Shown here one piece after another: positions 941 through 2,252 of a stretch of 64,000 nucleotides of DNA. The DNA lies in the IMG/VR virus record IMGVR_UViG_3300039208_000295; one strand, written 5' to 3'. A model generated the notes under the pieces. That model searched no databases. It was given only the letters and a program-made list of their open reading frames with translations, and was not told the DNA's origin. How positions within the stretch are numbered: position 1 is the stretch's first letter; every line of letters begins with the position of its first letter. Source of the DNA: a virus. Lineage: Duplodnaviria > Heunggongvirae > Uroviricota > Caudoviricetes. The translations under genes were made by a program, and so were the position numbers.

Positions 941-1070
941 ACCGGGGGTTGCGGGTTCGAGTCCCGTCAGGCGGCCCTGCCGTCTGTAGCTCAACTGGTA
1001 GAGCACCGGTCTTATTCGAAACTAGAGAGCCCAATTTCCGCACTTACAAAGGCCCGGCGACGGCAGGGCC
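941..1070 (+). ncRNA. Composite tRNA-like element; its parts are arranged as in a circularly permuted tRNA gene, closed by a 12-bp stem
   Basis: Parts in order: anticodon-stem 3' strand accgg (941-945); T-arm gcggg-ttcgagt-cccgt (951-967); 3' acceptor caggcgg (968-974). Immediately after come the 5' acceptor ccgtctg (980-986), U8A9, D-arm gctc-aactggta-gagc (989-1004) and anticodon-stem 5' strand ccggt (1006-1010). The two acceptor strands are complementary (one G-U). A perfect 12-bp stem pairs 973-984 with 1059-1070. Confidence 0.3.
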
Positions 1071-1075
1071 TATCG

Positions 1076-1163
1076 CTCTAGATGACAGATGCATATGTTG
1101 TTGGTGTAAAGGCAGCACACCGGCCGAAAGCCGGAGGAACGGTTCGATTCCGTATCTAGGGTG
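1076..1163 (+). ncRNA. Degenerate tRNA-like element with an insertion between positions 9 and 10 and a GAAA-hairpin anticodon arm
   Basis: Acceptor ctctaga (1076-1082) pairs with tctaggg (1157-1163). UG at 8-9, then a ~19-nt insert, then D-arm gtgt-aaaggca-gcac. The arm ccgg-ccgaaag-ccgg replaces a normal anticodon arm. T-arm aacgg-ttcgatt-ccgta. No CCA. Confidence 0.3.
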
Positions 1164-1173
1164 ATGAATACAA

Positions 1174-1206
1174 GGTGGCTATTCGAATTCCTTCCTTCTA
1201 TGATGC
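1174..1206 (+). repeat. Copy 3 of the motif GGTGGCTATtcgaa-TTCCTTCTATgatg
   Basis: Direct read. Followed by a TATGAT -10-like hexamer. Confidence 0.5.
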
Positions 1207-1267
1207 TGCACAAGCATCAGCCTATTAAGCTGACTTTAGGGATTGTAATTTCCACCACTTAAAACAT

Positions 1268-1300
1268 GACGGCTATTCTTACTTCTTCCTTCTACATCAA
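1268..1300 (+). repeat. Copy 4 of the motif GACGGCTATtcttact-TCTTCCTTCTACat
   Basis: Direct read. Confidence 0.5.
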
Positions 1301-1502
1301 ATTTATTGGAAAATTTTAAATAGAGGCTGAAATCTCCGTCATTTCTTACAAGTGAAGTGTATCTGACTGTACCAACGTGGTGACTATTGAGACCGCAAAT
1401 CTCAATATGGAATCGACAGAATGGGGCGGTGCTCAGCTAGCCGTCAAATGTCACCGGACGCTTCACTTTTCATGTCCATGAAAATTTTCATGTACATGAA
1501 AG

Positions 1503-1575
1503 GGCTCGTTCGTCTATCGGTTGAGGATACCAGACTTTCAATCTGGAGAGACGGGTTCGATTCCCGTACGAGCTA
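1503..1575 (+). tRNA. tRNA-Glu (anticodon UUC)
   Basis: Acceptor ggctcgt pairs with acgagct. D-arm of the tcgtct... type. Anticodon arm ccaga-ctttcaa-tctgg. T-arm acggg-ttcgatt-cccgt. Discriminator A, with CCA encoded at 1576-1578. Confidence 0.7.
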
Positions 1576-1582
1576 CCAAATT

Positions 1583-1789
1583 ATGAAGAAAATTATCACA
1601 CTAAATAAAGATGGGTATCGTACCGTGTGGCAAAATAGCAACACAAAAGGTATGATCGATGTTGATATCTTCAAAGAAGACGAAGAGACGCCTTGTTTGG
1701 AATGGTCATATGGCAAAGTTGTTGGTAATTCTATTCTTGGAAACGCCAATTTCTGGCTAGATCAAGCTATTGCTCAAGCAAGAGGTTAA
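1583..1789 (+). CDS. Hypothetical small protein
   Basis: ATG at 1583 just after tRNA-Glu. 68 aa (MKKIITLNKDGYRTVWQ...). TAA stop. Confidence 0.4.
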   Translation: MKKIITLNKDGYRTVWQNSNTKGMIDVDIFKEDEETPCLEWSYGKVVGNSILGNANFWLDQAIAQARG

Positions 1790-1972
1790 AGCAGAAGGAG
1801 ATGCATGCGGATTAGGCTTGTAAGCCAAGGGCTTAGAAAAGCAGAAATTATAATCCTAGAAGAAACCACTTATGGTAGAGTGAGTCAAACACGCCATCTG
1901 AAGTATTTCGAAAAATATGATACATGGCGTGACGTTCACGGAAATCTCTACAATATAAAGAATAAAAGTGTC

Positions 1973-2041
1973 CTATTGGTGTAACGGTAGCACGCCCGAC
2001 AGAACTCGGGCAGAACGGTTCGACTCCGTATGGACCTGAAA
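1973..2041 (+). ncRNA. tRNA-like element with an apparent 8-nt (or 6-nt) anticodon loop and an imperfect acceptor stem
   Basis: Acceptor gtcctat, UG at 8-9, D-arm gtgt-aacggta-gcac. The arm gcccg-acagaact-cgggc is 18 nt and cannot form a 5-7-5 arm. T-arm aacgg-ttcgact-ccgta. The 3' strand atggac pairs with the 5' strand only with a bulge. No CCA. Confidence 0.35.
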
Positions 2042-2044
2042 CAT

Positions 2045-2118
2045 GGCTCTGGGGCCCGTGAGGACGGGCAGTGGCCTCTAAAACCACTTTGTAGCGGGTT
2101 CGACTCCCGTCAGGGCCT
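2045..2118 (+). tRNA. tRNA with anticodon CUA (candidate amber suppressor)
   Basis: Acceptor ggctctg pairs with cagggcc (one G-U). D-arm gccc-gtgaggac-gggc. Anticodon arm gtggc-cTCTAaa-accac gives U33, C34 U35 A36, A37, with a C-A mismatch at 31-39. T-arm gcggg-ttcgact-cccgt. Discriminator U, with CCA encoded at 2119-2121. Confidence 0.5.
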
Positions 2119-2127
2119 CCAATATAT

Positions 2128-2252
2128 TGCCATGTAGTGTAAAAGCGGGCGAAAGTCTTATGCGAGTGATCATTAGCTTGGACCTCTTGGAAACGCGGGA
2201 TAGCACGCCGGAAATTGAGCCGGTAGTATTGGTTCGAATCCAATCGTGGCAG
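2128..2252 (+). ncRNA. tRNA-like gene with a ~52-nt insertion in the D-loop and a 16-nt anticodon arm
   Basis: Acceptor tgccatg pairs with cgtggca, followed by G and CCA at 2253-2255. U8A9, then D-stem gtgt...gcac enclosing 61 nt. That enclosed segment contains gcgggcgaaag. The arm ccgg-aaattgag-ccgg again implies an 8-nt loop. T-arm attgg-ttcgaat-ccaat. Confidence 0.35.

Follow-up and report, generated by a model that had tools for sequence, protein, structure and literature searches.

The 64,000-nucleotide (nt) stretch of viral DNA analyzed here (the window; IMG/VR record IMGVR_UViG_3300039208_000295, Caudoviricetes) is likely to encode, at positions 823-1342, four co-oriented Y-RNA-like non-coding RNAs, located directly downstream of the gene for a very divergent Ro60-like protein in which, as judged from a structural model, a TROVE-like ring is retained and a TerD domain replaces the vWA domain. 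The segment 941-1010, which an initial annotation of the sequence had taken for a possible circularly permuted tRNA gene matured through a circular intermediate, would accordingly form the YrlA-type tip of the second of these RNAs. The evidence consists of the RNA structures, their conservation, their linkage to the protein gene and a similarity of protein fold. Conservation of Ro60, a major autoantigen, and of Y RNAs extends from bacteria to humans.

The four elements, all on the plus strand, share the frame NNNGG-CUAU-P2-UUCCUUCUA...UA-P2'-RMUUU-CCNNN. Elements 1, 3 and 4 fold as long hairpins, and element 2 displays the same frame with a tRNA-like tip. Element 1 (823-890) starts 12 nt past the stop codon of the gene for the protein with the Ro60-like fold, a protein without a TROVE sequence match, and consists of the P1 stem GAACGG/CCGUUC, the internal loop CCAC, the P2 stem AUAAUAUC/GAUAUUAA and the core UUCCUUCUA at 841-849 (RNAfold z = -5.2; 40.8 bits with the stem covariance model R1). 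Element 2 (906-1042), which is of the YrlA type, has the basal stem UGCGG (906-910)/CCGCA (1038-1042), the CUAU loop, P2 at 915-923/1025-1030, the core at 924-932 and the tRNA-like module as its tip; the RNAfold minimum free energy (MFE) structure closes 906-910 with 1038-1042 and contains the second helix inside. Element 3 (1174-1256) carries the tip UGAUGCU-GCACA-AGCAUCA plus an overlapping hairpin, CAGC-CUAUUAA-GCUG, at 1217-1233 (z = -3.9; 32.9 bits with R1). The same tip sequence was found in the first element of another locus, L038, and a metagenome scan with the tip sequence gave no match. Element 4 (1266-1342) has the P1 stem AUGACGG/CCGUCAU and its core at 1286-1294 (z = -2.05; 25.7 bits with R1). 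In the 64 kilobases (kb) of the window TTCCTTCTA occurs four times, in each case within the cluster (841, 924, 1192 and 1286), compared to 0.58 expected copies. GGCYAY precedes each of the copies, and a complementary 3' strand, ending with UUUCC plus the complement of the first bases, comes after it. Model R1 identified three of the four elements and nothing else in the window.

The tRNA-like module (941-1010, plus strand) at the tip of element 2 is composed, in this order, of a closing-stem strand, a variable region, a T arm, an acceptor-like hairpin, a D arm and the second closing-stem strand. The closing stem pairs 941-945 (ACCGG) with 1006-1010 (CCGGT) over 5 base pairs (bp), as determined by direct reading and by script. 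A variable region of 5 nt separates ACCGG from the T arm at 951-967 (GCGGG-TTCGAGT-CCCGT), and the acceptor-like helix pairs 968-974 (CAGGCGG) with 980-986 (CCGTCTG) over 7 bp, including one G.U pair, across the 5-nt loop CCCTG. The D arm at 989-1004 reads GCTC-AACTGGTA-GAGC (as RNA, GCUC-AACUGGUA-GAGC), with UA before it and A, then CCGGU, after it. Thus, the permuted order of arms and the complementary acceptor strands that had been described for 941-1010 are real, as borne out by the letters and by the 7-bp and 5-bp pairings. In Rfam cmscan runs with permissive filters, the YrlA family (RF02553) matched 943-1008 with 42.3 bits (E = 1.2e-7) over model positions 23-85, which correspond to the tRNA-like module of bacterial Y RNAs. 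In YrlA-type Y RNAs, this arm order caps a long stem formed from the two ends of the RNA (Chen et al., 2014; PMC4201824). For covariation analysis, 15 modules from the window, its relative L012, IMG/VR contigs and the phages RcXuper, RpAliso and Weasels2 were compared. Over the four helices 94.6% of the cells were paired, double changes occurred in 18 of 21 pairs, and the covariation score was 0.77 versus 0.22 in shuffles, with compensatory change in all four helices. The 14 related module-bearing elements from elsewhere share the frame of element 2 or a variant of it, the tRNA-mimic tip being carried by one member of the family per locus. The segment 941-1010 is a YrlA-type tRNA-like module of a probable Y RNA and not a split tRNA gene; a circular intermediate is unnecessary, and that model does not fit the conserved stems.

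Among GenBank phages no close DNA relatives of the window were found, and one Logan contig (L011) was 100% identical to the window and, therefore, uninformative for comparison. The closest relative, L012, whose protein is 59% identical, harbors the same four-element array right after the stop codon. In its module the acceptor-like helix is entirely different in sequence and still paired, and the stems of its element 2 orthologue are compensated. At least 118 stretches of IMG/VR matched GGCTAT-N8-10-TTCCTTCTA, and in many of them 2-6 copies stood in tandem; with one genome for each prokaryotic species as target, the scan gave at least 120. Candidate elements were then validated by a script that requires pairing of both stems; 89 unique elements passed and defined the architecture NNNGG / CUAU / P2 of 8-9 nt / UUCCUUCUA / tip of 8-180 nt / ..UA / P2' / RMUUU / CCNNN. 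Columns outside the selection were also conserved, namely the A before P2' (65 of 66) and UUU before CC (53-60 of 66). In 56 constructs the two stems were 96% paired with a covariation score of 0.97, compared to 0.19 in shuffles and at most 0.23 with a slid partner; here, stem pairing itself was a selection criterion and the variety of pair types was not selected.

Validated elements were present in at least 48 phage loci of IMG/VR and in 28 loci of bacterial genome assemblies. A homologue of the protein was encoded in 36 of these 48 phage loci, where all elements (67/67) lie on the strand of the gene and 61 of the 67 within 1 kb of it. The protein was also encoded in 21 of the 28 bacterial loci, which include isolates of Paenibacillus, Brevibacillus, Gottfriedia, Cohnella and Chryseolinea. 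Conversely, loci found by the protein alone also bear elements or modules: model R1 detected elements in five loci fetched in this way, and nothing in three canonical phage Ro60 loci. With Rfam, YrlA-like modules were identified beside the protein gene in Rhodobacter phage RcXuper and Ruegeria phage RpAliso.

The partner protein is represented in the window by a partial open reading frame at 2-811 on the plus strand (stop codon 809-811), which encodes the C-terminal 269 residues, a TerD-type beta-sandwich and a tail, of a Ro60-like protein of ~700 residues. Full-length homologues of this size occur in many large phages, including the cultivable RcXuper, RpAliso, Weasels2, Xoo-sp13, LpeD and Campylobacter phages. 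In PHROGs the protein belongs to a family of unknown function (phrog_33734), in NCBIfam the uncharacterised MXAN_6230/SCO0854 'RING domain-containing' family matched it below the cut-off, and PADLOC returned no match that would assign it to a defence system. A homologue, P0040 (688 residues, 57% identical to the window fragment), was modelled with AlphaFold2 (predicted local distance difference test, pLDDT, 89.6; predicted template modelling score, pTM, 0.86). Residues 1-375 of the model are helical and residues ~425-610 form a beta-sandwich. The helical part is predicted to form a ring of HEAT-like repeats similar to that of Ro60 (TROVE), and at the C-terminus the model has no vWA domain with a MIDAS (metal ion-dependent adhesion site), a TerD beta-sandwich apparently occupying its place. 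A Foldseek search against viral models reached a TROVE protein. No canonical Ro60 is encoded in the window.

Several observations weigh against an assignment of the cluster to a Ro60/Y-RNA-type system. No Pfam domain, including TROVE (PF05731), was found in the protein, also when full-length homologues were tested, and a profile search against the PDB yielded only a weak, marginal match to TerD and none to Ro60. As the hhalign comparison with Ro60 was not significant (probability below 1%), the relation to Ro60 suggested by the model is one at the level of the fold only, and helical repeat proteins can be alike without common descent. In addition, the window does not include the N-terminal ring domain of its own protein, so that the fold evidence is derived from the homologue. 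With regard to the RNAs, the Rsr-contact motif GNCGAA(N)G was, by reading, absent from the elements, the 5' strands of which carry GG-CUAU-N8-9-UUCCUUCUA; elements 2 and 3 do contain UUCGAA, away from the conserved place and lacking the leading G. The YrlA score of 42 bits covers the module only and is below the Rfam gathering score (69 bits for the full model). However, in the canonical-Ro60 phage Khaleesi the YrlA match is likewise partial, restricted to the module and sub-threshold (36.1 bits), which makes the gathering score a weak criterion for phages. Finally, three further tRNA-like elements of the region (E1, E3 and E4, see below) rest on this one genome and, thus, have no comparative support.

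The elements could also be cis-acting sites on the mRNA of the protein, either as operators of its own gene or as processing or stability elements of a long transcript. This would be in line with the occurrence of elements on either side of the gene and in its orientation, with several loci in which ~20 nt separate the end of the last element from the downstream ribosome-binding site of that gene, and with the lack of a convincing sigma-70-type promoter or intrinsic terminator around each of the elements in the window. Nevertheless, we consider a cis-regulatory role improbable: arrays of three to six elements with diversified tips, including tRNA mimics, resemble sets of Y RNA paralogues, known Y RNAs are also processed from a common precursor beside Ro60 (PMC4201824), and four copies past a stop codon are hard to explain as translational operators.

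The permuted tRNA gene fared considerably worse. In the circularly permuted tRNA genes of Cyanidioschyzon merolae and of certain other algae and archaea, the splicing machinery joins the outer ends, which give a bulge-helix-bulge at a complete anticodon loop. The segment 941-1010 resembles these genes in having its 3' half upstream of its 5' half and complementary acceptor strands next to each other, and a working tRNA, joined at the anticodon loop and opened at the acceptor end, would agree with the RNA ligase and the CCA-adding-type enzyme encoded by the phage, with the C-CC that follows the acceptor 3' strand and with YrlA of M. smegmatis, which is cleaved by RNase P and receives CCA in the acceptor loop (PMC4201824). 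However, the flanks outside 941 and 1010 (UUUUACCA and CUUAUUCGAAACUA) give no 7-nt anticodon loop and contain no anticodon; the closing strands already pair with each other, and the outer ends run into P2 and P1, a conserved, covarying stem of a protein-binding type with invariant motifs. Moreover, the layout is that of the YrlA model, the module occurred in 15 loci always within the Y-type frame or a variant of it, and no bulge-helix-bulge motif was seen at the module upon inspection by eye. To our knowledge, bacteria also lack a splicing endonuclease, and a genuine permuted tRNA gene is, in our view, very improbable. Equally improbable is an origin of the module as debris, with the 3' part of one tRNA gene and the 5' part of an adjacent copy remaining after deletion or recombination in a tandem array. 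In favor of it, tandem tRNAs can mimic YrlA in searches (a caveat of Chen et al.; PMC4201824), our regular-expression scan for modules also caught many tandem tRNA pairs, and phage tRNA arrays decay, but the acceptor strands pair mutually over a 5-nt loop without CCA or spacer, the compensatory changes extend to all four helices across 15 loci, and the module sits in a conserved frame beside a conserved protein.

With the Y-RNA reading of the cluster retained, its relation to known systems can be specified. YrlA-type RNAs have been described beside Ro60 (Rsr) genes in 254 bacteria and 22 phages, and bacterial species encode one tRNA-like Y RNA plus shorter hairpin-type Y RNAs beside Ro60 (PMC4201824). 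In our searches canonical Ro60 was found in 357 GenBank phage records. The arm order of 941-1010 is, therefore, contrary to what the initial annotation had supposed, not new to phages. Like YrlA RNAs (RF02553), element 2 has a long stem formed by its ends and a tip of T arm, acceptor-like hairpin and D arm, it is encoded within a few hundred bases of the putative partner protein on the same strand, and it is accompanied by shorter hairpin-type paralogues, corresponding to YrlB and Yrn2 in YrlA systems. What distinguishes it from YrlA RNAs is a stem with CUAU, UUCCUUCUA and RMUUU where those have GNCGAA(N)G, the occurrence of up to six copies per locus, a partner that is not a recognisable TROVE protein, and a score below Rfam gathering. 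The protein itself has no detectable sequence similarity to Ro60/Rsr, which is composed of a TROVE ring and a vWA domain and includes the Ro60 proteins of phage phiLo and of mycobacteriophages; it is longer (~700 versus ~530 residues) and, according to the model, has a TerD beta-sandwich in place of vWA/MIDAS. For the Ro60 of Thermus phage phiLo, binding to two Y-like RNAs of the phage and to the host polynucleotide phosphorylase (PNPase) has been described (PMC12135203).

By analogy, the cluster and the protein are probably a divergent Ro60/Y-RNA-type system, a ribonucleoprotein that would act on tRNA or in RNA quality control. Each RNA is predicted to form a basal stem from its 5' and 3' ends and to expose a variable tip. 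The two conserved internal loops, CUAU opposite RMUUU and UUCCUUCUA opposite ..UA, represent the putative binding site for the protein, which may bind the stems in the way Ro60/Rsr binds Y RNA. The tips could then serve as adaptors that recruit partners or substrates, and the tRNA-like tip might be recognised by tRNA-handling enzymes or nucleases, so that the particle would tie the protein to surveillance or repair of RNA and tRNA during infection. Expression, binding and function of the elements are what we infer from known Ro60 systems. The neighborhood of the cluster comprises tRNA genes (more than 23 in the phage), an RNA ligase and a CCA-adding-type enzyme. Within the tRNA array, genes for an SPFH/Band-7 protein, an RNA ligase, a CCA-adding-type nucleotidyltransferase with an HD domain and NAMPT were identified (15808-16680, 19767-20852, 31772-33109 and 8094-9551). 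Band-7 modules have reportedly been linked to tRNA-like RNA in RNA-repair systems by Burroughs and Aravind in 2016.

A further-reaching proposal, which we regard as speculative and rather doubtful, is that these loci constitute a second branch of Ro60/Y-RNA ribonucleoproteins, with a TROVE-fold ring plus TerD, widespread in large phages and present in bacterial assemblies (Paenibacillus, Brevibacillus, Cohnella, Chryseolinea and others). Its multi-copy Y RNAs would display pieces of tRNA on a common protein-binding stem, namely the acceptor/T/D 'elbow' and, in a minority, a CU-NNN-AA heptaloop, as baits or adaptors in a conflict over tRNA cleavage and repair. That Y RNAs can have a tRNA-like domain and that phages can encode Ro60 was known already. 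The TROVE-TerD architecture, the RNA motif, the multi-copy arrays and the wide distribution were not found in Pfam, Rfam, PADLOC or the searchable literature, and a prior description elsewhere is possible; the RNA family is absent from Rfam. The role of the tRNA-like domain in bacterial Y RNAs is still unsettled. If the proposal holds, a second family that is unrecognisable by sequence would provide an independent natural experiment on the same design, that is, the same ring fold and the same tRNA-mimic RNA with a different binding motif, TerD for vWA and arrays of RNA paralogues. The ~700-residue 'hypothetical protein' of phrog_33734 would also acquire a name and a testable role, and a connection would be made between a particle for RNA surveillance and the tRNA arrays, RNA ligases and CCA-adding enzymes of phages. 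For annotation, an apparent 'permuted tRNA' in a phage should first be checked against Y RNAs.

Within the cluster, the initial annotation had also noted a 12-bp stem, and the pairing is exact: 973-984 (GGCCCTGCCGTC), on the loop side of the acceptor-like hairpin, is the perfect reverse complement of 1059-1070, with 74 nt in between. By script, only six start positions in the 64 kb have a 12-mer with an inverted copy no more than 150 nt away. As a working fold the stem is not supported, because it competes with the covariation-backed acceptor-like helix. Its downstream strand is the 3' part of a GC-rich hairpin, GGCCCGGCGACGGCAGGGCC (1051-1070, plus strand; RNAfold z = -3.0), which is located 3' of element 2 and just upstream of E1. 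Neither the GC-rich hairpin nor the 12-nt inverted repeat has a counterpart in L012 or L038.

The short spacers that follow the four elements, at 891-905, 1043-1050, 1257-1265 and 1343-1352, share (C)UUACAA or AAACAU, and CUUACAA is found at the same place in L038; the shared motif may be a processing signal. Between element 4 and the following tRNA-Glu (1343-1500), a long-range stem GUGAAG...CUUCAC and the near-identical hairpins UUUUCAUGUCCAUGAAAA and UUUUCAUGUACAUGAAA at ~1459-1497 were observed, and this region gave no Rfam match. Tips with a heptaloop of the anticodon-loop pattern CU-NNN-AA (e.g., CUUUUAA, CUUGAAA and CUGAAAA) occurred in 13 of 82 elements under permissive conditions, compared to 0.8 in shuffles, and in 4 of 94 by MFE, compared to 0.02. 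Although these numbers are far above those of the shuffles, mimicry of an anticodon stem-loop was rejected as a general feature of the tips. Such tips, borne by a minority of the hairpin-type elements, were found in L089, L096, L040, L084, L122, L028, L012 and others, and the example in the window (1217-1233) overlaps another hairpin and is ambiguous. The protein together with UUCCUUCUA elements was seen in L148, L151, L195, L205, L208, L215 and other loci of bacterial assemblies. In L002 (1480-1896) and L010 (1516-1804), the loci of RcXuper and RpAliso, and in the human-gut phage contig L004 (808-1108), tmRNA genes lie directly beside the Ro-like gene and the Y-like RNAs.

The remaining elements of the initial annotation, E1, E3 and E4, are tRNA-derived and non-canonical, as it had stated, and the options it had offered did include a 'processed non-coding RNA'. 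All features it had listed were present at the positions given, according to direct reading and, for 941-1010 and the 12-bp stem, also according to a script. Each of the three shows the canonical T loop and, correctly spaced from an acceptor strand, a D arm that follows the pattern GUGU-AA.GG.A-GCAC, which is far beyond chance. E1 (1076-1163, plus strand), located within the Y RNA cluster, has an acceptor stem of 7 bp (CTCTAGA/TCTAGGG) that the flanks could extend to ~11 bp. It has a T arm and lacks CCA, and its D arm, GTGT-AAAGGCA-GCAC, follows an insert of 17-19 nt (described before as ~19 nt); the 15-nt 'anticodon' arm, CCGGC-CGAAA-GCCGG, is a CGAAA-capped hairpin in place of a loop. E3 (1973-2041, plus strand), a weaker paralogue of E1, has similar D and T arms, the 16-nt arm GCCCGA-CAGAAC-UCGGGC (5-6-5 or 4-8-4), a weak acceptor stem with two mismatches or a bulge, and no CCA. 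E4 (2128-2252, plus strand) has perfect acceptor, D, T and anticodon stems, a discriminator G followed by CCA, and a structured D-loop insert of 52-59 nt (previously ~52 nt) with a GAAA-capped hairpin; its 18-nt arm, GCCGG-AAATTGAG-CCGGT, is 5-8-5 with the 8-nt loop AAAUUGAG. Thus, the arms of 15, 16 and 18 nt are present, and none of them forms a 7-nt loop on a 5-bp stem. The 8-nt loops or GAAA-capped stems deduced from these lengths were confirmed in part: the 8-nt loop is clear in E4 only and E1 has the CGAAA cap, but E1 (5 or 7 nt) and E3 (6 or 8 nt) have other loop options.

In place, ARAGORN called none of 941-1010, E1, E3 and E4, the only call in this stretch being a tRNA with anticodon CUA at 2045-2121, and at E <= 10 Rfam returned no tRNA match for E1 and E3. 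E4 did score as an Rfam tRNA (RF00005, 34.5 bits, with a 59-nt D-loop insertion), under permissive filters only and without a hit in the gathering run (gathering score 29). After deletion of its insert, ARAGORN called E4 at the default threshold with an 8-nt loop and the four-base anticodon AUUG; E1 and E3 were called only at lowered thresholds, E3 only at -ps80. A reading of E1 as a class-II Tyr(GUA)-like tRNA with a 9-nt loop, obtained with ARAGORN -ps70 -i only, was rejected, because in the register adopted here E1 retains the canonical D arm that it has in common with E3, E4 and genuine tRNAs of this phage. The identity of E1, E3 and E4 to the 23 called tRNAs is at most 75%, so that they are not recent copies. 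No relatives of the three elements were found, including in IMG/VR searches with the small open reading frames beside E3 and E4. Our best guess from the sequences is that E4 may be an expressed, non-standard tRNA-like RNA and that E1 and E3 may be non-decoding derivatives or relics.

That all three are decaying, functionless tRNA pseudogenes, the inserts and odd loops being damage, is a serious possibility, if not one we would call probable. The failure of ARAGORN to call any of them and of Rfam to match E1 and E3, the defective acceptor stem of E3, the lack of CCA in E1 and E3 and the lack of relatives all fit with decay, and tRNA-like sequences that bear inserts and go uncalled are frequent in the large-phage loci analyzed, with 27 of them in 1.15 Mb. 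However, E4 keeps four perfect stems, a canonical T loop, an encoded CCA and the GAAA-capped hairpin in the insert, E1 keeps perfect acceptor and T stems and sits in the Y RNA cluster, and all three are on the transcribed strand of the array. More tentatively, they may be functional RNAs that do not decode or decode in an unusual way, acting as decoys for host anticodon nucleases, as punctuation marks for RNase P and RNase Z by which adjacent RNAs would be released or, in the case of E4, as a tRNA with a four-base anticodon. Consistent with this, the tRNA body is preserved and the anticodon loop altered, E1 lies between Y RNAs, and ARAGORN reads E4 with an 8-nt loop and the anticodon AUUG. Phage tRNAs are known to evade anticodon nucleases by changes of the loop and to neutralise tRNA-cleaving defences (PMC10264068; PMC11464382; PMC11555353). 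E1, E3 and E4 are similar to those tRNAs in deviating mainly in the anticodon loop; they differ from them, as the published cases reportedly retain loops of 7 nt and continue to decode, by loops of 5/7, 6/8 and 8 nt, large inserts and the lack of CCA in two cases. A functional role is opposed by the restriction to a single genome mentioned above, by loops of 5, 6 and 8 nt that differ from each other and argue against one common mechanism, and by the lack of an excess of the tested candidate frameshift sites in the window.

The tRNA with anticodon CUA (2045-2121, plus strand), which is of the amber-suppressor type, matched the Rfam tRNA model with 33.8 bits (2045-2118), has an encoded CCA and closes its loop with a C.A mismatch at 31-39. 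There was no sign of TAG recoding in the window, where the standard code gave 90% coverage by open reading frames and TAG ends 10 of 59 long ones. Another uncalled tRNA-like element (11127-11223), one of the 27 in 1.15 Mb, directly follows tRNA-Phe. Its acceptor helix is perfect and could be extended to ~11 bp, and it also has a T arm, a long variable hairpin and an anticodon-loop-like CUGUAA with an 11-nt insert after it; at a low threshold with introns allowed, the ARAGORN reading is Tyr(GUA). In the window no called tRNA is present for Tyr, Cys and Ala. The Asn(GUU) and Lys(UUU) tRNAs have long variable arms of class II shape and both Leu tRNAs have short ones (4359-4448, 25416-25505, 25909-25985, 26309-26384 and 6902-6979). 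The Asn, Lys(UUU) and Arg(ACG) tRNAs share a near-identical anticodon stem, and this pattern may reflect swapping of anticodons between tRNA bodies.

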